This document shows positions 162 through 55,183 of a stretch of DNA of 64,000 bases, piece after piece (the stretch's first letter is position 1; each line of letters opens with the position of its first letter). Below the pieces are notes generated by a model. It saw nothing but the letters and a program-made list of their open reading frames with translations. It did not search any database and was not told the DNA's origin. The translations under genes were made by a program, and so were the position numbers. The stretch is from Mustelus asterias (lineage: Eukaryota): NCBI RefSeq assembly GCF_964213995.1, contig NC_135806.1, positions 60,512,001 through 60,576,000 on the forward strand. Direction: 5' to 3'.

Positions 162-455
162 TGATGCACCTCAATGAGCACCCGGAAACAAGGCTTTAGA
201 ACTGAAGGCTTTAATACATTAACAATGAAACTACTAACACAAATTCACCCGTTCAGACTGAAGGGGTCCTGCCGGAGCAGGGGGTCTTATACCCTGCCAC
301 CGGAGGCGGGACCCCACTGGAGTGTGCCATGATAACACTTAGGACAGGTAAACACCCTATCCCAACAACATAGTACAACCCCCATAACAACAACACCCTA
401 GCCCAACAGTAACACAATAACAACCCCAGTGGTGAACCAACGATGGTTCACCACA
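162..455 (-). repeat. 3' LTR of Gypsy copy 1
   Basis: 294 bp, direct repeat of 4588-4881; preceded on the element strand by the PPT AAAGGAGGGGTGAA (456-469). Confidence 0.97.
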
Positions 456-527
456 TTCACCCCTCCTTTAGGAACCAAAGGTGGCGGGGTGGATGAAAAC
501 AGACAATGACAAAAAAAATAACAGGAT

Positions 528-3500
528 TCACAAGTCCAGACGGTCTGGAGGACCACACCGACGCTGCGATCTTCTCAACACCGGTTGCGAAACCGGAGCA
601 GGTGCTTGCGGTGGCTCTCTCAAAACAACATCTGGCTGTCCCCTCAAAGACTCCTGGGCCGGCCGGCCCTGATGAGGCGATGGTGTAGGGGATCCTGGAA
701 CGTTTGGTGGTGGTGGTGGTGGTGATGATGGTGGCGCCGATCTCCGAGTCTCAGGCAAGCTGTACATGGGAGTAAAAGTGTTATGCACTGGTCCCGGTGC
801 TGACCGCGCCACGTCTGGGGAAGTAATGAGGAGTAGTGGATCTGTGACTGGGGGAATAGGAGCGACAGGAGTTGCTACGTCCCCTGCGGGCGCCAGGTCT
901 CTAATGGAGACAGTGTCCTCTCGCCCGTCAGGATATGCCACATAGGCATACTGAGGGTTGGCGTGGAGGAGTTGGACCGGTTCGACCAAGGGGTCGGACT
1001 TGCGAGCCCTCACATGGCGCCGCAGAAGGACGGGTCCTGGGTACGTCAACCAGGCTGGCAATGAGGTCCCCGAGGACGACTTCCGAGGGAATGAGAACAT
1101 CCTCTCGTGGGGAGTAGCATTGGTTGCCGTACACAGGAGGGAGCGGATAGAATGGAGCGCAGTTGGAAGGACCTCCTGCCACCGGGAGACTGGAAGGCCC
1201 TTGGATTTCAGTGCCAGTAGGACAGCCTTCCAGACTGTAGCATTCTCCCTTTCCACCTGTCCGTTACCCCTAGGGTTGTAGCTCGTGGTTCTACTAGAGG
1301 CAATCCCGAATGAGAGCAGGAATTGCCTCAAGTCGTTGCTCATGAACGACGAGCCCCTGTCGCTATGAATATAGCAGGGGTACCCGAACAGGGTAAAAAG
1401 CTCACTGAATGCCTTGATGACGGTGGCAGTCGACGTGTCCGCACAGGGGAAAACAAACGGAAACCGGGAAAATTCGTCTATTATGTTAAGAAAATAGACA
1501 TTCCGATCCGTTGAGGGAAGGGGGCCCTTAAAATCTACACTCAGCCTCTCAAAAGGGCGAGTGGCCTTGACCAAATGTGCCCGGTCTGGTCGATAAAAGT
1601 GTGGTTTGCATTCTGCGCAAATCCGACAACTTCTAGTAACTGACCTGACCTCCTCCACCGAGTAGGGTAGGTTGCGGGCTTTTATGAAGTGGTAGAGTCT
1701 GGTGACTCCAGGATGACACAGATCATTGTGGAGAGCCTTCAAGCGGTCCTCCTGCATGATGGCGCATGTTCCGCGCGAGAGGGCATCCGAGGGCTCATTG
1801 AGCTTCCCTGGACGATACATAATATCGTAATTATAGGTGGAGAGCTCAATTCTCCACCGCAAGATCTTATCGTTCTTGATCTTGCCCCTCTGCGTGTTAC
1901 TGAACATAAACGCCACGGATCGTTGATCCGTGATCAGGGTGAACCGCTTACCTGCCAGGTAATGGCGCCAGTGTCTGACTGCCTCCACAATGGCCTGAGC
2001 CTCCTTTTCCACCGCTGAGTGCTGAATCTCTGGGCCTTGAAGGGTGCGGGAAAAAAACGCGACGGGCCTGCCTGCCTGGTTTAGTGTGGCGGCTAGGGCG
2101 AAGTCCGATGCATCACTCTCCACCTGGAAAGGGATGGATTCATCCACCGCGTGCATCGTGGCTTTCGAGATGTCGCTTTTCAAAACCTTGAAGGCCAATT
2201 GGGCCTCCGGCGTAAGTGGGAAGGTCGTGGACTTAATGAGCGGACGAGCTTTGTCCGCGTAGTTGGGGACCCACTGTGCATAATACGAAAAGAACCCGAG
2301 GCATCTCCTCAGTGCTTTCGTGCTAGCGGGCAAGGGAAGTTCAGTGAGTGGGCGCATACAGTCTGGATCAGGGCCAATGACCCCGTTTTCCACCACGTAT
2401 CCGAGGATGGCTAACCTATGCGTACGGAATACGCACTTCTCCCTGTTATAGGTCAGATTCAGGCGAGATGCAGTGCGTAGAAAGTGTTGGAGATTCGTGT
2501 CGTGGTCCTGCTGGTCATGGCCGCAGATGGTGACGTTATCCAGGTACGGGAAGGTAGCCCGCAACCCGTTCTGGTCCACCATTCGGTCCATAGCACGCTG
2601 GAAGACCGAGACCCCATTGGTGACACCAAATGGAACCCTGAGGAATTGGTATAGACGACCATCCGCCTCAAAAGCCGTATATTGTCGGTCCTCTGGGCGG
2701 ATGGGGAGTTGATGGTAGGCGGACTTAAGGTCTATGGTAGAAAACACTCGGTACTGCGCAATCTGATTGACCATATCAGAAATGCGCGGGAGAGGATACG
2801 CATCCAGCTGCGTGTATCTATTAATGGTCTGACTATAGTCGATGACCATCCGAGGTTTGTTCCCGCTTTTGACTACCACGACCTGCGCTCTCCACGGACT
2901 AGCACTGGCCTGTATGATCCCTTCCTTGAGGAGCCGCTGAACCTCAGATCTAATAAAGATCCGGTCCTCAGCGCTGTAACGCCTACTTTTAGTAGCGATG
3001 GGCTTGCAGCCAGGTACCAGATTTTTAAAAAGGGATGGTGTCGTGATCTTCAGGGTGGATAGATTGCACGCGGGGCGCTTTGGGCAATTTGGAGGCTGCG
3101 GCTGGTTCCCTACTGCCAGTGAAGGGAGTGGCCCACCGTACTGTAGGATCACACTCCTCATGTGGGCCATAAAGTTTAGTCCGAGGAGAATTGGCGCGCA
3201 AAGGTGAGGTAGCACAAGGAGCCTGTATTGCTCGTAAACTGTGCCCTGTACCTCAAGAGTTACCATACATTGTCCTTGGATCGGTACAGACCGGGACTGT
3301 GATGCCATGGAAATTGTCTGTTTGGCAGGGAGAACCCGGAGTCCACACCTTTTAGCAGTTTCAGGGTGTATGAAACTTTCGGTGCTCCCACTGTCAAACA
3401 GACAATTCACAGTTCTGCCACTAACCTTTACCTCCATCATGGAATGTTCCAGTCTGTAATGCCTGGTCTGATCCAGAGAGATCGACGCCACCGTTGGCCC

Positions 3501-4565
3501 CTGGGCGTCACTGCATGCTGCCGATGTGGATGCTGAGGACCCCTGCTGGTCGCTGCTGCATGCTGCCGATGTGGATGCTGAGGACCCCTGCTGGTCGCTC
3601 CTAGTCGTCGTGGACCATGATGGCCGCCCCCATGAATCGCATGTGGCCGAGGGCTCCAAGCGCAGCGACTCCTGGTGGTCTTCCTCCTCCTCTGTCTGCC
3701 ACGATGGCGCCGTCCTGAGATCGCACGTGGTCGGACCTCGTGGGTACTGCAGCGCCGAAAGAGATGGTCTCCGTTCTGGAGGGTTACAAGCTGCACTGCC
3801 GTTTTTAGGTTTGGACCTGCAGACTTTGCCGTAGTGGCCTTTTTTACCGCACTGGCTGCAGATTGCCGTTCTTGCCGGACACTGTTGCCGTGGATGCTTG
3901 GCCCCACCGCAAAAATAGCATCGCTGGCCACCTGGAGCTGCCGCCGTCGTCGAATCGATCTGGGAGCGCGGGTTCGCGGGGCGAGGAGGGAGCAGAGCTT
4001 GCTCCAACCACGTTGACTGCACGTGGTCCTCGGGGTACAGCGCCAAGCTCTTCGACGCCGCCTCCAACCTCACGGCCATCCCCATTGCCTGGGTCAAGTT
4101 GAGTTTCCCCTTTTCTAATAATTTAAGTCTGATGTACGAGGACCCTACCCCTGCTACGAACGCGTCTCGGGCGAGGTCTTGCATGTACTGCTCGGCGGAG
4201 ACATCCTTACAGTCACAACCCCTGGCAAGCTGCAGGAGTTCATTGGCGTAGTCTTCTATGGTCTCGCCCGACTGCCGACGTCGTGTAGCGAGGAGATAAC
4301 GAGCGTGAATCTCGTTGGGTGGCGTAATGTACCTATTCTTTAGGAGCTCGACGGCACCCTGGTAAGTGGAAGCTGCACGAATGGCTAGGTAAATCGTGTC
4401 GCTTACCCTTGCGTGGAGGACCTGGAGTCTATCACTGTCTGTAGTGATAGCTACCGAGGCTGCCAGGTAGTCCTCGAAGCACTTCCACCAATGTTCGAAC
4501 GTGTTAGCTGCACCGACCGCACGTGGGTCCAGTGTCAGACGATCCGGTTTTAGGATCTGTTCCAT
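528..4565 (-). CDS. Gag-Pol polyprotein, 1345 aa from ATG (the ORF track extends upstream to a GTG inside the LTR)
   Basis: Two CCHC knuckles (CYFCGGAKHPRQQC, CSQCGKKGHYGKVC), protease LFDSGS, RT (IDLKSAYHQ, PFG, YLDN), RNase H (SDASD, EKEA, ITDQ), integrase HHCC and DDE (VDFKG, HSDRG, VEREN). Confidence 0.96.
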   Translation of the reverse strand: MEQILKPDRLTLDPRAVGAANTFEHWWKCFEDYLAASVAITTDSDRLQVLHARVSDTIYLAIRAASTYQGAVELLKNRYITPPNEIHARYLLATRRRQSGETIEDYANELLQLARGCDCKDVSAEQYMQDLARDAFVAGVGSSYIRLKLLEKGKLNLTQAMGMAVRLEAASKSLALYPEDHVQSTWLEQALLPPRPANPRSQIDSTTAAAPGGQRCYFCGGAKHPRQQCPARTAICSQCGKKGHYGKVCRSKPKNGSAACNPPERRPSLSALQYPRGPTTCDLRTAPSWQTEEEEDHQESLRLEPSATCDSWGRPSWSTTTRSDQQGSSASTSAACSSDQQGSSASTSAACSDAQGPTVASISLDQTRHYRLEHSMMEVKVSGRTVNCLFDSGSTESFIHPETAKRCGLRVLPAKQTISMASQSRSVPIQGQCMVTLEVQGTVYEQYRLLVLPHLCAPILLGLNFMAHMRSVILQYGGPLPSLAVGNQPQPPNCPKRPACNLSTLKITTPSLFKNLVPGCKPIATKSRRYSAEDRIFIRSEVQRLLKEGIIQASASPWRAQVVVVKSGNKPRMVIDYSQTINRYTQLDAYPLPRISDMVNQIAQYRVFSTIDLKSAYHQLPIRPEDRQYTAFEADGRLYQFLRVPFGVTNGVSVFQRAMDRMVDQNGLRATFPYLDNVTICGHDQQDHDTNLQHFLRTASRLNLTYNREKCVFRTHRLAILGYVVENGVIGPDPDCMRPLTELPLPASTKALRRCLGFFSYYAQWVPNYADKARPLIKSTTFPLTPEAQLAFKVLKSDISKATMHAVDESIPFQVESDASDFALAATLNQAGRPVAFFSRTLQGPEIQHSAVEKEAQAIVEAVRHWRHYLAGKRFTLITDQRSVAFMFSNTQRGKIKNDKILRWRIELSTYNYDIMYRPGKLNEPSDALSRGTCAIMQEDRLKALHNDLCHPGVTRLYHFIKARNLPYSVEEVRSVTRSCRICAECKPHFYRPDRAHLVKATRPFERLSVDFKGPLPSTDRNVYFLNIIDEFSRFPFVFPCADTSTATVIKAFSELFTLFGYPCYIHSDRGSSFMSNDLRQFLLSFGIASSRTTSYNPRGNGQVERENATVWKAVLLALKSKGLPVSRWQEVLPTALHSIRSLLCTATNATPHERMFSFPRKSSSGTSLPAWLTYPGPVLLRRHVRARKSDPLVEPVQLLHANPQYAYVAYPDGREDTVSIRDLAPAGDVATPVAPIPPVTDPLLLITSPDVARSAPGPVHNTFTPMYSLPETRRSAPPSSPPPPPPNVPGSPTPSPHQGRPAQESLRGQPDVVLREPPQAPAPVSQPVLRRSQRRCGPPDRLDL

Positions 4566-4587
4566 ATTCTCAGTTAATGTATTAAAT

Positions 4588-4881
4588 TGATGCACCTCAA
4601 TGAGCACCCGGAAACAAGGCTTTAGAACTGAAGGCTTTAATACATTAACAATGAAACTACTAACACAAATTCACCCGTTCAGACTGAAGGGGTCCTGCCG
4701 GAGCAGGGGGTCTTATACCCTGCCACCGGAGGCGGGACCCCACTGGAGTGTGCCATGATAACACTTAGGACAGGTAAACACCCTATCCCAACAACATAGT
4801 ACAACCCCCATAACAACAACACCCTAGCCCAACAGTAACACAATAACAACCCCAGTGGTGAACCAACGATGGTTCACCACA
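4588..4881 (-). repeat. 5' LTR of Gypsy copy 1
   Basis: 294 bp, direct repeat of 162-455. Confidence 0.97.
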
Positions 4882-30026: not shown

Positions 30027-30858
30027 TGTAGTACCTGTTAATTCTCAGATACTTTCGACCAGTTTGCTTACTCTAAGGTTTTACCCCGGTGTCCTTATTT
30101 GCAAGATGGACAAAGGACAAACACAAGTAAAGGTTCAACAAGTTTATTAATAATAACACTATTAACCCTTAAATTACCCACATAAAACAAGAGGATACCC
30201 CAGCAGATTCAAGTATACTACCTGCAAAGATGGTTTGGTTGAACTGCAGGCTCGATTCTCTGAGTCACTCTGGTCCGTCGTCACGAAGGTGAGTCTCGAT
30301 GGCAGCTTCTTCCTTCCTTCCTTCTCTGGTCAGTCTTCCGAATGGGCAAGGCCGCCTCCTTCGTCGAGTCTTCGCTCCTGTGTGACTTGAAGTGTGTCCT
30401 GTTACCCCCCAGCCTGCTTGCCTTTACAGAAACTTCTCTGGCTTCCGGCCAGTGAGGTTCCAGGAGGGAGTTCCAATACCCAGTGGGTTTCTTGATGTCT
30501 GCCTGACAGGACACCAGGGTCCGCCCCCAGGTGTCCATCTACATGCTGTTGCTTATGTATAACTTGTTATCAGATAAAGTATCTACAGGAACTCTTGGTG
30601 ACAGAAAGTCTGGCCCGATCTGGGCTTCTAACAATAGGCCGGTGCATTTCAATGAGGTGCAATGATCTCCTGCTACGTCTCGATAGATTGTAACGACCTT
30701 TGATAGGTGGTTGATGGGTCAGGTGCAGACACGTTTGTGTATTTGTACAATTGGCCTGCCTGAGGTTTGACTGTGTTTGATTTTAATATGCCCAATTCTT
30801 TAATTTAGGATATCCAATTTTATCAGCCTTAAAACAAGGCCCTGTTTATATCATCACA
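30027..30858 (-). mobile_element. Solo LTR, 832 bp
   Basis: TG..CA termini, 4-bp TSD AGGG (30023-30026, 30859-30862), cleanly interrupts the LINE RT; AATAAA on the minus strand near 30145. Confidence 0.85.
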
Positions 30859-31537
30859 AGGGGCAAACTCTCCACTGGTTGGAGCCATACCTGGTACATA
30901 GGAAGATGGTTGCACTTGTGGAAGGTCAGTCATCTCAGCTCCACGACATCTCTGCAGGAGTCCCTCGGGGTAGTGTCCTAGCCCCAAAAATCTTCAGCTG
31001 CTTCAACAATGACCTTCCCGCCGTCACAAAGTCAGAAGTGGGGATGTTTGCCGATGATTGCACAATGTTCAGCACCATTCGCGACTCCTCAGATACTGAA
31101 GCAGTCCATGTTCAAATGCAACAAGATCTGGACAATATCCAGGCTTGGGCTGACAAGTGGCGAGTAACATTCACATCACACAAATGCCAGGCAATGACCA
31201 TCACCAATAAGAGACACTCTAACCACTGCCCCTTGACATTCAATGATGTTACCATCACTCAATCCCCCGCTGTCAACATCCTTGGGGTTACCATTGACCA
31301 GAAACTCAACTGGACTCACCACATAAACACAGTGGCTACAAGAGCAAGTCAGACGCTAGGAATACTGGGGCAAGTAACTCACGTCCCGACTCCCCAGAGC
31401 CTATCCACATTGACAAGGCACAAGTCAGGAGTGTGATGGAATACTCCCCACTTGCCTGGATGGGTGCAGCTCCAACAACACTCAAGAAGCTTGACACCAT
31501 CCAGGACAAAGCAGCCCATTTGATTAGCACCACATCT

Positions 31538-37220: not shown

Positions 37221-37379
37221 TGGATTGCATTTTTGTGGTGAACCATCGTTGGTTCACCACTGGGGTTGTTATTGTGTTACTGTTGGGCTAGGGTGTTGTT
37301 GTTATGGGGGTTGTACTATGTTGTTGGGATAGGGTGTTTACCTGTCCTAAGTGTTATCATGGCACACTCCAGTGGGGTC

Positions 37380-37432
37380 CCGCCTCCGGTGGCAGGGTAT
37401 AAGACCCCCTGCTCCGGCAGGACCCCTTCAGT
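37380..37432 (+). promoter_or_regulatory. Putative LTR core promoter
   Basis: GC box CCCGCC near 37380, TATAAG at 37398-37403, Inr-like TCAGT about 30 nt downstream; ATTAAA at 37474-37479. Confidence 0.6.
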
Positions 37433-37549
37433 CTGAACGGGTGAATTTGTGTTAGTAGTTTCATTGTTAATGTATTAAAGCCTTCAGTTCTAAAGCCTTG
37501 TTTCCGGGTGCTCATTGAGGTGCATCAATTTAATACATTAACTGAGAAT

Positions 37550-40500
37550 ATGGAACAGATCCTAAAACCGGATCGTCTGACACTGGACCCACGTGCGGTC
37601 GGTGCAGCTAACACGTTCGAACATTGGTGGAAGTGCTTCGAGGACTACCTGGCAGCCTCGGTAGCTATCACTACAGACAGTGATAGACTCCAGGTCCTCC
37701 ACGCAAGGGTAAGCGACACGATTTACCTAGCCATTCGTGCAGCTTCCACTTACCAGGGTGCCGTCGAGCTCCTAAAGAATAGGTACATTACGCCACCCAA
37801 CGAGATTCACGCTCGTTATCTCCTCGCTACACGACGTCGGCAGTCGGGCGAGACCATAGAAGACTACGCCAATGAACTCCTGCAGCTTGCCAGGGGTTGT
37901 GACTGTAAGGATGTCTCCGCCGAGCAGTACATGCAAGACCTCGCCCGAGACGCGTTCGTAGCAGGGGTAGGGTCCTCGTACATCAGACTTAAATTATTAG
38001 AAAAGGGGAAACTCAACTTGACCCAGGCAATGGGGATGGCCGTGAGGTTGGAGGCGGCGTCGAAGAGCTTGGCGCTGTACCCCGAGGACCACGTGCAGTC
38101 AACGTGGTTGGAGCAAGCTCTGCTCCCTCCTCGCCCCGCGAACCCGCGCTCCCAGATCGATTCGACGACGGCGGCAGCTCCAGGTGGCCAGCGATGCTAT
38201 TTTTGCGGTGAGGCCAAGCATCCACGGCAAGAGTGTCCGGCAAGAACGGCAATCTGCAGCCAGTGCGGTAAAAAAGGCCACTACGGCAAAGTCTGCAGGT
38301 CCAAACCTAAAAACGGCAGTGCAGCTTGTAACCCTCCAGAACGGAGACAATCTCCTTCGGCGTCGCAGTACCCACGAGGTCCGACCACGTGCGATCTCAG
38401 GACGGCGCCATCGTGGCAGACAGAGGAGGAGGAAGACCACCAGGAGTCGCTGCGCTTGGAGCCCTCGGCCACATGCGATTCATGGGGGCGGCCATCATGG
38501 TCCACGACGACTAGGAGCGACCAGCAGGGGTCCTCAGCATCCACATCGGCAGCATGCAGCAGCGACCAGCAGGGGTCCTCAGCATCCACATCGGCAGCAT
38601 GCAGTGACGCCCAGGGGCCAACGGTGGCGTCGATCTCTCTGGATCAGACCAGGCATTACAGACTGGAACATTCCATGATGGAGGTAAAGGTTAGTGGCAG
38701 AACTGTAAATTGTCTGTTTGACAGTGGGAGCACCGAAAGTTTCATACACCCTGAAACTGCTAAAAGGTGTGGACTCCGGGTTCTCCCTGCCAAACAGACA
38801 ATTTCCATGGCATCACAGTCCCGGTCTGTACCGATCCAAGGACAATGTATGGTAACTCTTGAGGTACAGGGCACAGTTTACGAGCAATACAGGCTCCTTG
38901 TGTTACCTCACCTTTGCGCGCCAATTCTCCTCGGACTAAACTTTATGGCCCACATGAGGAGTGTGATCCTACAGTACGGTGGGCCACTCCCTTCACTGGC
39001 AGTAGGGAACCAGCCGCAGCCTCCAAATTGCCCAAAGCGCCCCGCGTGCAATCTATCCACCCTGAAGATCACGACACCATCCCTTTTTAAAAATCTGGTA
39101 CCTGGCTGCAAGCCCATCGCTACTAAAAGTAGGCGTTACAGCGCTGAGGACCGGATCTTTATTAGATCTGAGGTTCAGCGGCTCCTCAAGGAAGGGATCA
39201 TACAGGCCAGTGCTAGTCCGTGGAGAGCGCAGGTCGTGGTAGTCAAAAGCGGGAACAAACCTCGGATGGTCATCGACTATAGTCAGACCATTAATAGATA
39301 CACGCAGCTGGATGCGTATCCTCTCCCGCGCATTTCTGATATGGTCAATCAGATTGCGCAGTACCGAGTGTTTTCTACCATAGACCTTAAGTCCGCCTAC
39401 CATCAACTCCCCATCCGCCCAGAGGACCGACAATATACGGCTTTTGAGGCGGATGGTCGTCTATACCAATTCCTCAGGGTTCCATTTGGTGTCACCAATG
39501 GGGTCTCGGTCTTCCAGCGTGCTATGGACCGAATGGTGGACCAGAACGGGTTGCGGGCTACCTTCCCGTACCTGGATAACGTCACCATCTGCGGCCATGA
39601 CCAGCAGGACCACGACACGAATCTCCAACACTTTCTACGCACTGCATCTCGCCTGAATCTGACCTATAACAGGGAGAAGTGCGTATTCCGTACGCATAGG
39701 TTAGCCATCCTCGGATACGTGGTGGAAAACGGGGTCATTGGCCCTGATCCAGACCGTATGCGCCCACTCACTGAACTTCCCTTGCCCGCTAGCACGAAAG
39801 CACTGAGGAGATGCCTCGGGTTCTTTTCGTATTATGCACAGTGGGTCCCCAACTACGCGGACAAAGCTCGTCCGCTCATTAAGTCCACGACCTTCCCACT
39901 TACGCCGGAGGCCCAATTGGCCTTCAAGGTTTTGAAAAGCGACATCTCGAAAGCCACGATGCACGCGGTGGATGAATCCATCCCTTTCCAGGTGGAGAGT
40001 GATGCATCGGACTTCGCCCTAGCCGCCACACTAAACCAGGCAGGCAGGCCCGTCGCGTTTTTTTCCCGCACCCTTCAAGGCCCAGAGATTCGGCACTCAG
40101 CGGTGGAAAAGGAGGCTCAGGCCATTGTGGAGGCAGTCAGACACTGGCGCCATTACCTGGCAGGTAAGCGGTTCACCCTGATCACGGATCAACGATCCGT
40201 GGCGTTTATGTTCAGTAACACGCAGAGGGGCAAGATCAAGAACGATAAGATCTTGCGGTGGAGAATTGAGCTCTCCACCTATAATTACGATATTATGTAT
40301 CGTCCAGGGAAGCTCAATGAGCCCTCGGATGCCCTCTCGCGCGGAACATGCGCCATCATGCAGGAGGACCGCTTGAAGGCTCTCCACAATGATCTGTGTC
40401 ATCCTGGAGTCACCAGACTCTACCACTTCATAAAAGCCCGCAACCTACCCTACTCGGTGGAGGAGGTCAGGTCAGTTACTAGAAGTTGTCGGATTTGCGC

Positions 40501-41587
40501 AGAATGCAAACCACACTTTTATCGACCAGACCGGGCACATTTGGTCAAGGCCACTCGCCCTTTTGAGAGGCTGAGTGTAGATTTTAAGGGCCCCCTTCCC
40601 TCAACGGATCGGAATGTCTATTTTCTTAACATAATAGACGAATTTTCCCGGTTTCCGTTTGTTTTCCCCTGTGCGGACACGTCGACTGCCACCGTCATCA
40701 AGGCATTCAGTGAGCTTTTTACCCTGTTCGGGTACCCCTGCTATATTCATAGCGACAGGGGCTCGTCGTTCATGAGCAACGACTTGAGGCAATTCCTGCT
40801 CTCATTCGGGATTGCCTCTAGTAGAACCACGAGCTACAACCCTAGGGGTAACGGACAGGTGGAAAGGGAGAATGCTACAGTCTGGAAGGCTGTCCTACTG
40901 GCACTGAAATCCAAGGGCCTTCCAGTCTCCCGGTGGCAGGAGGTCCTTCCAACTGCGCTCCATTCTATCCGCTCCCTCCTGTGTACGGCAACCAATGCTA
41001 CTCCCCACGAGAGGATGTTCTCATTCCCTCGGAAGTCGTCCTCGGGGACCTCATTGCCAGCCTGGTTGACGTACCCAGGACCCGTCCTTCTGCGGCGCCA
41101 TGTGAGGGCTCGCAAGTCCGACCCCTTGGTCGAACCGGTCCAACTCCTCCACGCCAACCCTCAGTATGCCTATGTGGCATATCCTGACGGGCGAGAGGAC
41201 ACTGTCTCCATTAGAGACCTGGCGCCCGCAGGGGACGTAGCAACTCCTGTCGCTCCTATTCCCCCAGTCACAGATCCACTACTCCTCATTACTTCCCCAG
41301 ACGTGGCGCGGTCAGCACCGGGACCAGTGCATAACACTTTTACTCCCATGTACAGCTTGCCTGAGACTCGGAGATCGGCGCCACCATCATCACCACCACC
41401 ACCACCACCAAACGTTCCAGGATCCCCTACACCATCGCCTCATCAGGGCCGGCCGGCCCGGGAGTCTTTGAGGGGACAGCCAGATGTTGTTTTGAGAGAG
41501 CCACCGCAAGCACCTGCTCCGGTTTCGCAACCGGTGTTGAGAAGATCGCAGCGTCGGTGTGGTCCTCCAGACCGTCTGGACTTGTGA
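37550..41587 (+). CDS. Gag-Pol polyprotein, 1345 aa
   Basis: Same domains as copy 1; 8 amino-acid differences seen. Confidence 0.96.
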   Translation: MEQILKPDRLTLDPRAVGAANTFEHWWKCFEDYLAASVAITTDSDRLQVLHARVSDTIYLAIRAASTYQGAVELLKNRYITPPNEIHARYLLATRRRQSGETIEDYANELLQLARGCDCKDVSAEQYMQDLARDAFVAGVGSSYIRLKLLEKGKLNLTQAMGMAVRLEAASKSLALYPEDHVQSTWLEQALLPPRPANPRSQIDSTTAAAPGGQRCYFCGEAKHPRQECPARTAICSQCGKKGHYGKVCRSKPKNGSAACNPPERRQSPSASQYPRGPTTCDLRTAPSWQTEEEEDHQESLRLEPSATCDSWGRPSWSTTTRSDQQGSSASTSAACSSDQQGSSASTSAACSDAQGPTVASISLDQTRHYRLEHSMMEVKVSGRTVNCLFDSGSTESFIHPETAKRCGLRVLPAKQTISMASQSRSVPIQGQCMVTLEVQGTVYEQYRLLVLPHLCAPILLGLNFMAHMRSVILQYGGPLPSLAVGNQPQPPNCPKRPACNLSTLKITTPSLFKNLVPGCKPIATKSRRYSAEDRIFIRSEVQRLLKEGIIQASASPWRAQVVVVKSGNKPRMVIDYSQTINRYTQLDAYPLPRISDMVNQIAQYRVFSTIDLKSAYHQLPIRPEDRQYTAFEADGRLYQFLRVPFGVTNGVSVFQRAMDRMVDQNGLRATFPYLDNVTICGHDQQDHDTNLQHFLRTASRLNLTYNREKCVFRTHRLAILGYVVENGVIGPDPDRMRPLTELPLPASTKALRRCLGFFSYYAQWVPNYADKARPLIKSTTFPLTPEAQLAFKVLKSDISKATMHAVDESIPFQVESDASDFALAATLNQAGRPVAFFSRTLQGPEIRHSAVEKEAQAIVEAVRHWRHYLAGKRFTLITDQRSVAFMFSNTQRGKIKNDKILRWRIELSTYNYDIMYRPGKLNEPSDALSRGTCAIMQEDRLKALHNDLCHPGVTRLYHFIKARNLPYSVEEVRSVTRSCRICAECKPHFYRPDRAHLVKATRPFERLSVDFKGPLPSTDRNVYFLNIIDEFSRFPFVFPCADTSTATVIKAFSELFTLFGYPCYIHSDRGSSFMSNDLRQFLLSFGIASSRTTSYNPRGNGQVERENATVWKAVLLALKSKGLPVSRWQEVLPTALHSIRSLLCTATNATPHERMFSFPRKSSSGTSLPAWLTYPGPVLLRRHVRARKSDPLVEPVQLLHANPQYAYVAYPDGREDTVSIRDLAPAGDVATPVAPIPPVTDPLLLITSPDVARSAPGPVHNTFTPMYSLPETRRSAPPSSPPPPPPNVPGSPTPSPHQGRPARESLRGQPDVVLREPPQAPAPVSQPVLRRSQRRCGPPDRLDL

Positions 41588-41992
41588 ATCCTGTTATTTT
41601 TTTTGTCATTGTCTGTTTTCATCCACCCCGCCACCTTTGGTTCCTAAAGGAGGGGTGAATGTGGTGAACCATCGTTGGTTCACCACTGGGGTTGTTATTG
41701 TGTTACTGTTGGGCTAGGGTGTTGTTGTTATGGGGGTTGTACTATGTTGTTGGGATAGGGTGTTTACCTGTCCTAAGTGTTATCATGGCACACTCCAGTG
41801 GGGTCCCGCCTCCGGTGGCAGGGTATAAGACCCCCTGCTCCGGCAGGACCCCTTCAGTCTGAACGGGTGAATTTGTGTTAGTAGTTTCATTGTTAATGTA
41901 TTAAGGCCTTCAGTTCTAAAGCCTTGTTTCCGGGTGCTCATTGAGGTGCATCAATTTTCTATGTCCTAAACAAATCAAACTCATAGTTAAAT

Positions 41993-50847: not shown

Positions 50848-51630
50848 TGAATATCAAAGGACTCAGGGTTGTATATTAAAAGGAACTTTAACAGGCAGAC
50901 AGTCATGGAGTTAAGACCGCACACAACCTTTGTATGGAATTTAGGAAACACCAGTTATACGCACATCCCATTAATTAACAAAACAATTTGACCACTTAAC
51001 ATCCCAGCACAGGCCTGAAATTAAACCTGTGCCGTCCCTTTGCTTTAAGGCTGTGTGGTGATTGTTTCTTTAAGGGAAACACAGCGGAAAGGAGGTCACC
51101 TGGCTTGAAGGACAAATAGGGATTAAGAGTGAGTAATTGCCCCGAGAGGGTGGGGGGTAGAGTCCTCTCTTAGACAAAAGACATCTAGAAGGCATCTAGA
51201 AAACATGTGGGGACTGGGGCAGTTGGTGGACTGCTCCAGGGCAGCCAGTGGGGGCTACCAGCCTCTGAATGGTTTTTCCTTATTAATAAATATCTTTTGT
51301 GTTCCTGGCGACATCTGTGAGTGTACATCATTACATTTGGCAATGAGGATCGGATGGTTTACGTGAACACAACCTCTGGCCCGACACCTGTGAGTATCCT
51401 GTTTTAATCAAAGTCTGAAGAAAGAGAAAATACTCACCCAAATGCTTGTCTTTGGGTAAATAGACCCAGTGAGATGTTGCCAGACCCTGAGGACATGGAA
51501 TGAACCTGAATTGGCCAGGGCAGTCAAAGATTTAGACTTGTATAGAGAAAAAATTAAGAGGAAATAACCTCAGAAACATGAGCTGTGATTTTGTATTTAA
51601 GGAAAAGTGGAACTTAAGTTAAAAATAAAC

Positions 51631-54181
51631 GTTGTTAGGAGTTTACTATAAGACCCCAAATAGTAATAGAGATGTGGAGGAAGAAATTGCTAAGCAGATT
51701 ATGGATAGGCGTGGGGGTCACAGGGTAGTTGTCATGGGGGACTTTAACTTTCCAAATATTGACTGGAATCTTTGTAGGTCGAATAGTTCGGATGGGGCAG
51801 TTTTTGTGCAGTGTGGGCAGGAGGGTTTCCTGATACAATATGTGGATAGGCCAACAAGAGGTGGGGCCACATTGGATTTGGTACTGGGAAATGAACCGGG
51901 CCAAGTGTTAGATTTGGTTGTGGGAGAGCATTTTGGAGATAGTGACCACAATTCGGTGTCTTTTGTTATTGCAATGGAGAGGGATAGGGCCGTATGGCAG
52001 GGCAAGGTTTATAATTGGGGGAGAGGTAATTATGATGCCATTAGGCAAGAATTAGGGGGCATAAGATGGGAACAGAAGCTGTCAGGGAAAGGCACTAATG
52101 AAAAGTGGAACTTTTTCAAGGAACAAATACTGTGTGTCCTTGATAGGTATGTCCCTGTCAGGCAGGGAGGAAATGGCCGAGTGAGGGAACCATGGTTCAC
52201 AAAAGAGGTGGAATGTCTTGCAAAAAGGAAGAGGGAAGCTTATGTAGAGATGAGGAAACAAGGTTCAGATGGCTCGATTGAGGGTTACAAGTTAGCAAGG
52301 AATGAGCTGAAAAAGGGGCTTCAGAGAGCTAGGAGGGGGCATGAGAAGTCCTTGGCGGGTCGGATCAAGGAAAACCCCAAGGCTTTTTACGCTTATGTGA
52401 GGAATAAAAGAATGACCAGGGTGAGGTTAGGGCCGGTCAAGGACAGTAGTGGGAACTTGTGTATGGAGTCAGTAGAGATAGGAGAGGTGATGAATGAATA
52501 CTTTTCTTCAGTGTTCACCAAGGAGAGGGGCCATGTTTTTGAGGAAGAGAAGGTGTTACAGACTAATAGGCTGGAGGAAGTAGATGTTCGGAGGGAGGAT
52601 GTACTAGCAGTTTTGAATAAACTGAAGGTTGATAAGTCCCCTGGGCCTGATGAAATATATCCTAGGATTCTTTGGGAGGCAAGGGATGAGATTGCAGAGC
52701 CTTTGGCTTTGATCTTTGGGTCCTCACTGTCCAGGTGATGGTGCCAGAGGACTGGAGAGTGGCGAATATTGTTCCTCTGTTTAAGAAAGGGAATAGAAAT
52801 GACCCTAGTAATTATAGGCCGGTTAGTCTTAAATCGGTGGTTGGTAAGTTGATGGAAAAGGTCCTTCGGGATGGGATTTACGACCATTTAGAAAGATGTG
52901 GATTAATCCAGGATAGTCAGCACGGATTTGTGAAGGGCAAGTCGTGCCTCACAAATTTGATAGAATTTTTTGAGGAGGTAACTAAGTGTGTTGATGAAGG
53001 TAGGACAGTTGATGTCATATACATGGATTTTAGTAAGGCGTTTGATAAGGTCCCCCATGGTCGGCTTATGATGAAAGTAAGGAGGTGTGGGATAGAGGGA
53101 AAGTTGGCCGATTGGATAAGTAACTGGCTATCTGATCGAAGGCAGAGGGTGGTGGTGGATGGAAAATTTTCGGACTGGAGGCAGGTTGCTAGCGGAGTGC
53201 CATAGGGATCAGTGCTTGGTCCTCTGCTCTTTGTGATTTTTATTAATGACTTAGAGGAGGGGGCTGAAGCGTGGATCAGTAAATTTGCTGATGACACCAA
53301 GATTGGTGGAGTAGTGGATGAGGTGGAGGGCTGCTGTAGACTGCAAAGAGACATAGATAGGATGCAAAGCTGGGCTGAAAAATGGCAGATGGAGTTTAAC
53401 CCTGATAAATGTGAGGTGATTCATTTTGGTAGGACAAATTTAAATGTGGATTACAGGGTCAAAGGTAGGGTTCTGAAGACTGTGGAGGAACAGAGAGATC
53501 TTGGGGTCCATATCCACAGATCTCTGAAGGTTGCCACTCAAGTGGATAGAGCTGTGAAGAAGGCCTATAGTGTGTTAGCTTTTATTAACAGGGGGTTGGA
53601 GTTTAAGAGCCGTGGGGTTATGCTGCAACTGTACAGGACCTTGGTGAGACCACATTTGGAATATTGTGTGTAGTTCTGGTCACCTCACTATAAGGATGTG
53701 GAAGCACTGGAAAGAGTGCAAAGGAGATTTACCAGGATGCTGCCTGGTTTGGAGGGTAGATCTTATGAGGAAAGGTTTGAGGGAGCTGGGGCTGTTCTCT
53801 CTGGAGCGGAGGAGGTTGAGGGGAGACTTAATAGAGGTTTATAAAATGATGAAGGGGATAGATAGAGTGAACGTTCAAAGACTATTTCCTCGGGTGGATG
53901 GAGCTATTACAAGGGGGCATAACTATAGGGTTCATGATGGGAGATATAGGAAGGATGTCCGAGGTAGGTTCTTTACTCAGAGAGTGGTTGGGGTGTGGAA
54001 TGGACTGCCTGCAGTGATAGTGGAGTCAGACACTTTAGGAACATTTAAGCGGTTATTGGATAGGCACATGGAGCACACCAGGATGATAGGGAGTGGGATA
54101 GCTTGTTCTTGGTTTCAGATAAAGCTCGGCACAACATCGTGGGCCGAAGGGCCTGTTCTGTGCTGTACTGTTCTATGTTCT
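51631..54181 (+). mobile_element. CR1 (HER1-like) LINE, 5'-truncated, ORF2 pseudogenised
   Basis: Endonuclease (MGDFNFP, LDLVL, SDHN) and RT (NYRPVSL, YMDFSKAFDKV, KFADD) with a few stops and frameshifts; (TTCTATG)n tail. Confidence 0.95.
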
Positions 54182-55183
54182 AAAGAGTTGCTGCAAATGT
54201 TCTTTAAAAAAGAGAAGAGAACAGAATGCACTGAGGGACTGCAGGCAGCGAGGTTCCAAAGTTTTTATAAGTGGAGAAGACTTCAACCTGTTTAAAACAA
54301 AGTTAAAGTTAGAAAGTTTTCAAAAATGGCCCCTTGGTCCTCGAGAGTGCTGGATCTGCCAGTGAAAGTGACAAAGGAAATAATTGCACATCAAAAGGAA
54401 GAGAGGAGCAAACTGTTCAAATGGCCAGAGAAGAAAAAAGCTACAGAGCTCGCTGAGAGAGCTTTACATTAGTAAAAAGAAGTGAGGCTTTAAAACTTTA
54501 AAGAAGGTTCAAAGAAGGAGCAGCAGGTTTGCGCCAAACTTCAAAAGCGCAGGAAAACACCGAGAACCAGCAGCTGCTGACAGCAGTAAAAATTGATTAC
54601 ACTCTTAAAGAGGTAATGCATTTAAAGTGGTAATACATTTCATGTGGCAATGAATTTAAAGCAATAACCACAAGCAGAAACCAAGGACAGTGGACAGCAA
54701 AAGTGGAGAAGAACCTGAATAGAGGGCAACTCTCAAAAAAGATCCTTAAGCAACAAAGCCCTCAAGGAAGAGGCAACAGAAGACCTCAGAGGAGGCAATA
54801 GATGACCCCAGAAGGAAAGCACTAGTAGATCCCATAAGGATGGCACTGAAAGGCCCCATAGAGAGGGCACTGATAGACCCAGAAAGAGGGAACTGAAAGA
54901 CCCCAAAAGGAGGACAATGATGAAATACCCCAGAAGAAGGACAACAAAAGGCAATGAACGACCAAATAAAGGGCAATGAGAGAATTGCAGAATGGAAACA
55001 AGTCAACACTTCGTTGGAGACAGACTTGACCATCAGTGAAGCAAAAAGGGTTTGCTGAAGCTAAGACAAGTAGAAATGAAAATTCCATTTGTGAAATGTA
55101 AATGTCGAGTCATAACATGATGGGTTAACCTCAGAAGAAACACAGAAATTAACGACTTCAAAAGAAACCGGGAACCATTGAAC

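Follow-up and report, generated by a model that had tools for sequence, protein, structure and literature searches.

A Ty3/Gypsy family of Mustelus asterias with asparagine at the third catalytic position of its reverse transcriptase

Can a reverse transcriptase (RT) that carries asparagine in place of its third catalytic aspartate still copy its own element? The stretch of 64,000 nt analysed here (the window) raises this question, as it contains two full-length LTR retrotransposons whose RT reads YLDN at motif C, the position at which the canonical triad has the form D...YxDD. To our knowledge, the third RT aspartate is presented in textbooks as invariant. Comparative sequence evidence points, with a probability of roughly 80%, to an autonomous Ty3/Gypsy element whose RT would operate with two carboxylates (Asp612 and Asp676) and Asn at the third site.

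Two full-length copies carrying YLDN

The elements lie on opposite strands. The principal features are as follows, with domain boundaries given for copy 2.

37234..41953 (+): copy 2, full-length Ty3/Gypsy element of 4720 bp
37229..37233 (+): 5' target-site duplication of copy 2, ATTTT
37234..37527 (+): 5' LTR of copy 2, 294 bp, TG..CA ends
37550..41587 (+): gag-pol of copy 2, a single ORF of 1345 aa
38195..38296 (+): two Cys-Cys-His-Cys knuckles in Gag, read off the translation
38681..38950 (+): aspartyl protease, PF13975 (Pfam)
39245..39721 (+): RT core, PF00078 (Pfam)
39383..39385 (+): RT motif A aspartate Asp612, intact
39569..39580 (+): RT motif C YLDN of copy 2, with Asp676 at 39575-39577 and Asn677 at 39578-39580
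39977..40282 (+): RNase H, PF17917 (Pfam)
40361..40843 (+): integrase zinc finger PF17921 (below the cut-off) and integrase core PF00665 (Pfam)
41643..41659 (+): polypurine tract upstream of the 3' LTR, copy 2
41660..41953 (+): 3' LTR of copy 2, 294 bp
41954..41958 (+): 3' target-site duplication of copy 2, ATTTT
162..4881 (-): copy 1, full-length element of 4720 bp, target duplication GGGTG
528-4565 (-): gag-pol ORF of copy 1, equivalent to that of copy 2
2535..2546 (-): RT motif C YLDN of copy 1

Both gag-pol frames extend over 1345 aa without a stop. Across eight Pfam hits, the domains follow the Ty3/Gypsy order of protease, RT, RNase H and integrase, and no envelope or chromodomain family occurs among these eight. 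Further hallmarks of the group are present in the 294-bp TG..CA LTRs, the 5-bp target duplications and the purine tract. The RNase H retains its acidic residues D818, E855 and D880, as well as D927 slightly beyond the Pfam stretch. Compared with solved LTR-type RTs, the RT-RNase H region matched Ty3 most strongly (E 3e-52), followed by caulimovirus (8e-31) and retroviruses (5e-19 or weaker). Judged by its domains and by these solved enzymes, the element is a member of Ty3/Gypsy (Metaviridae).

The codons TACCTGGATAAC stand in frame at both 39569-39580 (+) and 2535-2546 (-) and translate to YLDN, as the first-pass annotation had stated for the two intact copies. Asn677 aligns with the second Asp of Ty3 YLDD and thus takes the place of the third aspartate of the triad, the other two being present. 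In an AlphaFold model of 391 aa (mean pLDDT 81.5; 91 over the motif block), YLDN forms the turn of the motif-C beta hairpin between strands 132-135 and 138-143, with Asn as the first residue of the second strand. The predicted fold matches caulimovirus, Ty3 and retroviral RTs, Ty3 being among the top matches (TM 0.64), and a search of the ESM Atlas returned generic RT/RNase H clusters only.

The 5-bp target duplications differ (ATTTT for copy 2 and GGGTG for copy 1), and the copies are therefore separate insertions. Their LTR pairs show one mismatch in 294 positions in copy 2 and none in 294 in copy 1, in line with the earlier description of independent insertions with identical or near-identical LTRs. 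Between the copies there are 12 base differences over 4720 bp, in 10 codons, eight of them non-synonymous, and the motif is untouched.

Several other features of the element and its surroundings were recorded. Every LTR start (37235-37260 in the 5' LTR of copy 2) forms an 11-bp hairpin with a 4-nt loop, which most older subfamilies retain with a bulge or mismatch. The spacer between Gag and protease (~38516-38605) contains an in-frame 45-nt tandem duplication in both copies. At ORF codon 736 (copy 2 position 39755), copy 1 encodes Cys where 96% of the clade described below has Arg, which looks like a CpG change after insertion. Elsewhere in the window, broken LINE-type RT frames (30804-31436 and 51629-54295) and many copies of a short interspersed repeat (repeat families D3, D4 and D9-D13) are present, which may be CR1-like and tRNA-derived, respectively; no tRNA genes were detected in the 64,000 nt. 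Head-to-tail copies of the element occur at G000:C9:69611140-69619621, where they lie ~4 kb apart, and also at locus L094.

The YLDN family in the genome

A degenerate motif pattern, which overlooks copies mutated at other motif positions, matched 10,352 PYLDN and 19 PYLDD sequences in the genome, and the reversed control pattern matched none. Neighbouring single A-to-G mutants, used as controls, were both more frequent than YLDD (YLDS 31; YLGN 34). A looser pattern gave 10,933 Asn and 25 Asp matches; the six extra Asp matches comprised two further mutated family copies and four distant sequences (21-35% identity, mostly stop-bearing), bringing the YLDD copies of the element's lineage to 21 over both patterns. 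YLDN is the family's normal state in this genome, and YLDD stands at or below the level of sporadic mutation. Over the RT core (150 aa), all 150 scored genome loci are at least 99% identical, 136 of them 100%. Post-insertion decay and assembly error are excluded by the 10,352 matches together with these 136 identical loci. The first-pass proposals that Asn was already in the transposed template and that the lineage tolerates it are supported.

Selection was assessed on 60 full loci, of which 40 came from the list for the first contig (partly chosen by codon variant), 16 were young and four carried YLDD; with the two window copies these make 62, and the 42 with a stop-free RT-RNase H stretch were compared. 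Near-identical copies are uninformative for dN/dS; the ratio for this stretch was 0.05-0.11 in comparisons with every one of the 19 YLDN copies whose dS exceeded 0.03, the most distant reaching dS 1.9. The RT-RNase H is under strong purifying selection across YLDN subfamilies. In a set of 20 young copies, the LTRs of 14 are identical and 17 are flanked by matching target duplications, no two of which are the same; by these marks the family is recently active.

The same change, when engineered, stops transposition of both Ty1 and Ty3, and 21 YLDD copies of the lineage are present in the genome; together these facts give some footing to the idea that YLDN elements are not autonomous but rely on the RT of a YLDD relative, or on another RT, acting in trans. 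A family mostly of YLDD members mobilizing these copies was also one of the cases that the first-pass annotation had named as fatal to its reading, and the 19 YLDD against 10,352 YLDN matches show the reverse. The 19 YLDD loci, rarer than the YLDS and YLGN mutants, are 71-92% identical to the window element and scattered over older subfamilies, with none in the young subfamily, and only 1 of the 19 has an open frame over the whole 3-kb locus. The four distant YxDD matches are the divergent, mostly stop-bearing sequences noted above, and the cartilaginous-fish branch of the tree described below holds Asn in 14 of 14 rows. Moreover, activity in cis is made likely by the conservation of the enzyme, since a passenger RT would not hold dN/dS near 0.06 out to dS 1.9. 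A YLDD helper was therefore rejected as very unlikely, and copying in trans by any RT appears highly improbable. The searched viral contigs contained no relative of the element. Taken as a whole, the genomic copies argue strongly that the Asn enzyme itself makes new copies in cis, and that it very probably works.

Two further observations concern individual contigs. One contig joint across the element was considered as an empty allele, but its two sides are separated by 27 unrelated letters and it was not accepted as such. In four contig runs, no variant at the Asn codon appeared among the 40 listed of 83 rows, which carries no weight on the question of editing discussed below.

Asp and Asn at the third site across an animal clade

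The nearest named homologues of the element belong to rays and catsharks (81-84% identity), which points to a cartilaginous-fish host. Outside the cartilaginous fishes, named homologues come from a sea anemone, corals, a tunicate and nematodes, both nematode proteins carrying Asp. Within the best 120 of 1255 homologues, 94 have YxDN, 25 YxDD and one YLNK. Among 150 cluster representatives, Asn extends down to ~43% identity and is found in 0 of 71 rows below 40%. A FastTree tree of 252 rows was built with the motif column removed, after exclusion of 19 of 270 proteins for short coverage. All 117 Asn rows fall inside one animal Ty3/Gypsy clade of 187 rows (support 100), in which the site is N in 117, D in 68, Y in one and K in one. 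Outside the clade, 64 of 65 rows have Asp and the remaining one a gap.

The tree requires 20 changes of state at the site, of which 10 are forced by well-supported branches, compared with 82.8 for shuffled labels; an IQ-TREE analysis of 50 hand-picked rows, including mixed pairs, gave 14 changes, nine of them forced. Since Asp predominates on the deepest branches of the clade, and support for many of these is weak, direction and number are minimum estimates. In six clusters at 90% identity, the members that cover the motif all agree, on Asp in five clusters and on Asn in one. Each state is therefore fixed by lineage, and lineages fixed for Asp are nested in Asn branches. The other two aspartates are nearly invariant in the clade (183/187 for Asp612 and 185/187), and the third site is itself constrained to Asp or Asn, since only 2 of 187 rows have anything else. 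As far as these alignments and trees indicate, Asn is a stable, reversible clade trait of an otherwise ordinary-looking Ty3/Gypsy element with a non-canonical active site.

Two sets of sequences in the wider collection call for comment. Clade elements inside five bacterial metagenome-assembled genomes (L215-L219) are most likely misbinned animal DNA. In two full-length relatives (L159 and L160), the LTRs are 93% identical and the primer site is self-complementary over 16 bp; their motif reads YLNN, which is probably the product of decay.

The restriction of the site to Asp or Asn, and the fact that a single A-to-G change turns AAC into an Asp codon, could also be read as a sign that Asp is restored after transcription or translation, through A-to-I editing of that codon or deamidation of Asn677. 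Edited genomic RNA would enter new insertions, yet YLDD lies below background. Val or Ile follows the site in 180 of 187 clade rows, and next to such residues spontaneous deamidation is slow. Restoration of Asp is therefore scarcely credible.

Work on yeast elements provides a measure of what an Asn enzyme has to overcome. According to the accessible text of PMC2148107, Ty1 D211N polymerizes in vitro and D211E does not; D211N has a 223-fold lower kpol and a preference for Mn2+, it does not transpose unless RNase H suppressors restore 5-10%, and the third residue is linked to the A-site metal and to pyrophosphate release. The first-pass statement that the Ty1 change allows polymerization and blocks transposition agrees with this account. 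For Ty3, the accessible part of a review (PMC5371799) reports that D214N is active with reduced processivity, that D151N and D213N lose activity and that D214E is active, all triad mutants being lethal for transposition; the third residue is judged to stabilize the activated complex. Activity of D214E means that a short Asx side chain is not consistently preferred in the yeast data. Some compensation must exist in the clade, because the same change abolishes transposition in both yeast systems and lowers the Ty1 kpol to the extent given above.

No single compensating residue was found. Among the top Fisher-ranked columns listed, none tracked Asp/Asn significantly in independent pairs, and a given directed change was shared by at most seven of the 18 nearest Asp/Asn pairs, a set that is not independent; on these two comparisons the single-residue solution was rejected. 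Where columns correlate with the Asp/Asn state, the correlation is attributable to relatedness. Clade and outgroup differ at 57 columns, including motif B (GVTNGV), an Arg-to-Ser change in the fingers, Gly682 and, at 40187-40192 in the RNase H, TDQ (176 of 187 clade rows) for TDH (59 of 65 outgroup rows). Members with Asp and members with Asn have these differences, TDQ among them, in common. The differences are candidate contributors to a permissive background, which is not attributable to any one residue because as many as 57 columns differ.

In the mechanism we favour, that of an RT with two carboxylates and Asn, Asp612 and Asp676 would hold the catalytic metals in the manner of Ty3 D151 and D213. 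The third site would probably still need a short side chain with a carbonyl oxygen, which Asn would provide close to the catalytic metal and the primer end, as an uncharged ligand or through a hydrogen bond. With somewhat less assurance, we lean towards tolerance arising from a clade-wide permissive background that predates Asn, and not from one paired residue, so that Asp and Asn would be near-equivalent. The clade enzyme would be free of the kinetic penalty that is lethal to the yeast mutants.

Near-equivalence may be set against active preference for Asn in some lineages, for example if an RT that works more slowly or with different metal tuning does less harm to the host or keeps RNase H in balance. 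Asn-to-Asp mutants arise in the genome (~0.2% of copies) and the copies counted include no Asp subfamily that has spread; in addition, the suppressors of Ty1 D211N map to RNase H, the domain in which the clade has TDQ. TDQ is, however, shared by Asp and Asn members, the Asp-fixed lineages inside Asn branches indicate that Asp is viable, and a dN/dS near 0.06 predicts long stasis at one site in any case. We consider such preference unlikely.

Self-complementary primer site and comparison with known systems

The 5' end of copy 2 contains two complementary segments.

37466..37479 (+): LTR arm complementary to the primer-site position and with a poly(A)-signal-like hexamer at its end; candidate self-primer
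37529..37542 (+): primer-binding-site position, 1 nt past the LTR, with no TGG and a 14-nt perfect complement of the LTR arm

The predicted fold of 37430-37580 pairs arm and site with modest support (z -2.2). The 55 genome loci compared yield 26 distinct arm/site pairs, of which 15 are perfect across 13 nt, each with a different sequence; only 4 of 644 cross-pairings are perfect, hence arm and site co-vary across subfamilies. Among metagenome loci with a located gag start, several of which share an assembly, an arm of at least 11 bp was present in 24 of 30, compared with 1 of 600 shuffles. Such co-variation would fit self-priming in which the primer is recopied in every cycle. The arm lies 68 nt past a TATA-like box and may, as a primer, be internal to the transcript. 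It also overlaps the likely poly(A) signal, and pairing could mask this signal in the 5' LTR. The A run at the end of the arm is followed, in most clade members (37466-37484 here, and L110-L218), by a brief conserved gcc/acc at which cleavage may occur.

The co-occurrence of Asn with this unusual site had been taken in the first-pass annotation as a hint of a distinct replication mechanism. A link of this kind, in which an intramolecular RNA-RNA duplex start favours Asn or relaxes the need for a third carboxylate, would account for the restriction of Asn to a clade with the self-complementary site, for the pair in 18 of the 21 YxDN loci from metagenomes in which the gag start was located and for the co-variation seen in the genome. 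Nevertheless, the same arrangement occurs in the YxDD members L123 (14 bp), L217 (15 bp), L147 (14 bp) and L185 (11 bp), and the clade shows no fewer than 10 flips between Asp and Asn. Sampling of the Asp side is sparse, with the pair in 4 of 19 YxDD loci; of the 15 without it, six lack the upstream region and nine have mostly decayed upstream DNA. All Asn rows belong to a single clade, so the shared distribution amounts to one independent co-occurrence, and in the present sample the two traits are found in one clade without segregating together within it. The proposed distinct mechanism is thus unsupported, and a dependence of Asn on self-priming seems quite unlikely. The self-complementary site would instead be a separate clade trait for which Asn is not required. 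A broader scenario, also doubtful, is that the RT palm and RNase H of a Gypsy clade spread across animals were remodelled along with a switch to internal self-RNA priming, that this remodelling freed the third aspartate, and that Asn is a recurring, sometimes favoured tuning of a tRNA-free, two-carboxylate RT.

Among solved enzymes, Ty3 of Saccharomyces cerevisiae (PDB 4OL8) is the best sequence match and has the same domain order, Asn677 aligning with D214. Ty3 is primed by a tRNA and its wild type is YLDD, whereas here Asn is the wild type of a family of about ten thousand copies. Ty1 D211N carries the same substitution at the same motif position and also polymerizes, but it is engineered and belongs to a different superfamily (Ty1/copia). 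By motif alone, the element may be likened to the RNA polymerases of Mononegavirales and birnaviruses, in which GDN or ADN at motif C places a natural Asn at the equivalent third position; these are RNA-dependent RNA polymerases with an unrelated life cycle.

Tf1/Tf2 and Tj1 of fission yeasts resemble the window element in having a primer site complementary to their own LTR and not to a tRNA, which is the 14-nt, co-varying arrangement described above and a defining feature of the Tf1/sushi group. That group also has a chromodomain integrase, the basis of chromovirus placement, which does not appear among the eight Pfam hits here, and Tf1 retains both motif-C aspartates. The Tf1/Tj1 primer is the 5' end of the mRNA, in contrast to the possibly internal arm of the present element, and the accessible text of PMC4600332 implicates self-priming from fungi to vertebrates.

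The substitution itself has a published natural precedent in nematode BEL/Pao elements (Belpaoviridae), where Cer7-Cer12 and Atlas virus carry YVDN, as stated in the accessible text of bioRxiv 10.1101/2021.11.23.469668; the first-pass annotation does not mention it. In the accessible portion of their paper, Copeland and colleagues (2005) left activity with Asn in the nematode YVDN elements to be determined and cited Bowen and McDonald 1999 (PMC554778). The two cases are alike in having a natural Asp-to-Asn change at the last motif-C position of intact LTR elements. They are unlike in that Atlas has an env gene, with none found here, and in that both states persist and flip within one clade here. 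The window element also has two knuckles in place of the triple Cys-His box of BEL/Pao Gag (hallmarks as given in the accessible part of PMC554778), together with a Gypsy-type Pfam set. Its Gypsy affinity places it in a different superfamily, and the BEL/Pao Asn would therefore be of independent origin.

Our literature search, which lay outside most subscription journals, Repbase and GyDB, found no published report of Asn in a Gypsy RT; the Gypsy occurrence extends the substitution to a second superfamily. The copies described here offer what appears to be strong population evidence that natural Asn supports the full replication cycle in a very abundant family of that superfamily. If YxDN elements were annotated as inactive, a family represented by about ten thousand RT-bearing copies in this genome would be misclassified. 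Close natural pairs of Asp and Asn enzymes (86% identical) allow the role and dispensability of the residue to be asked directly, which the dead yeast mutants do not.
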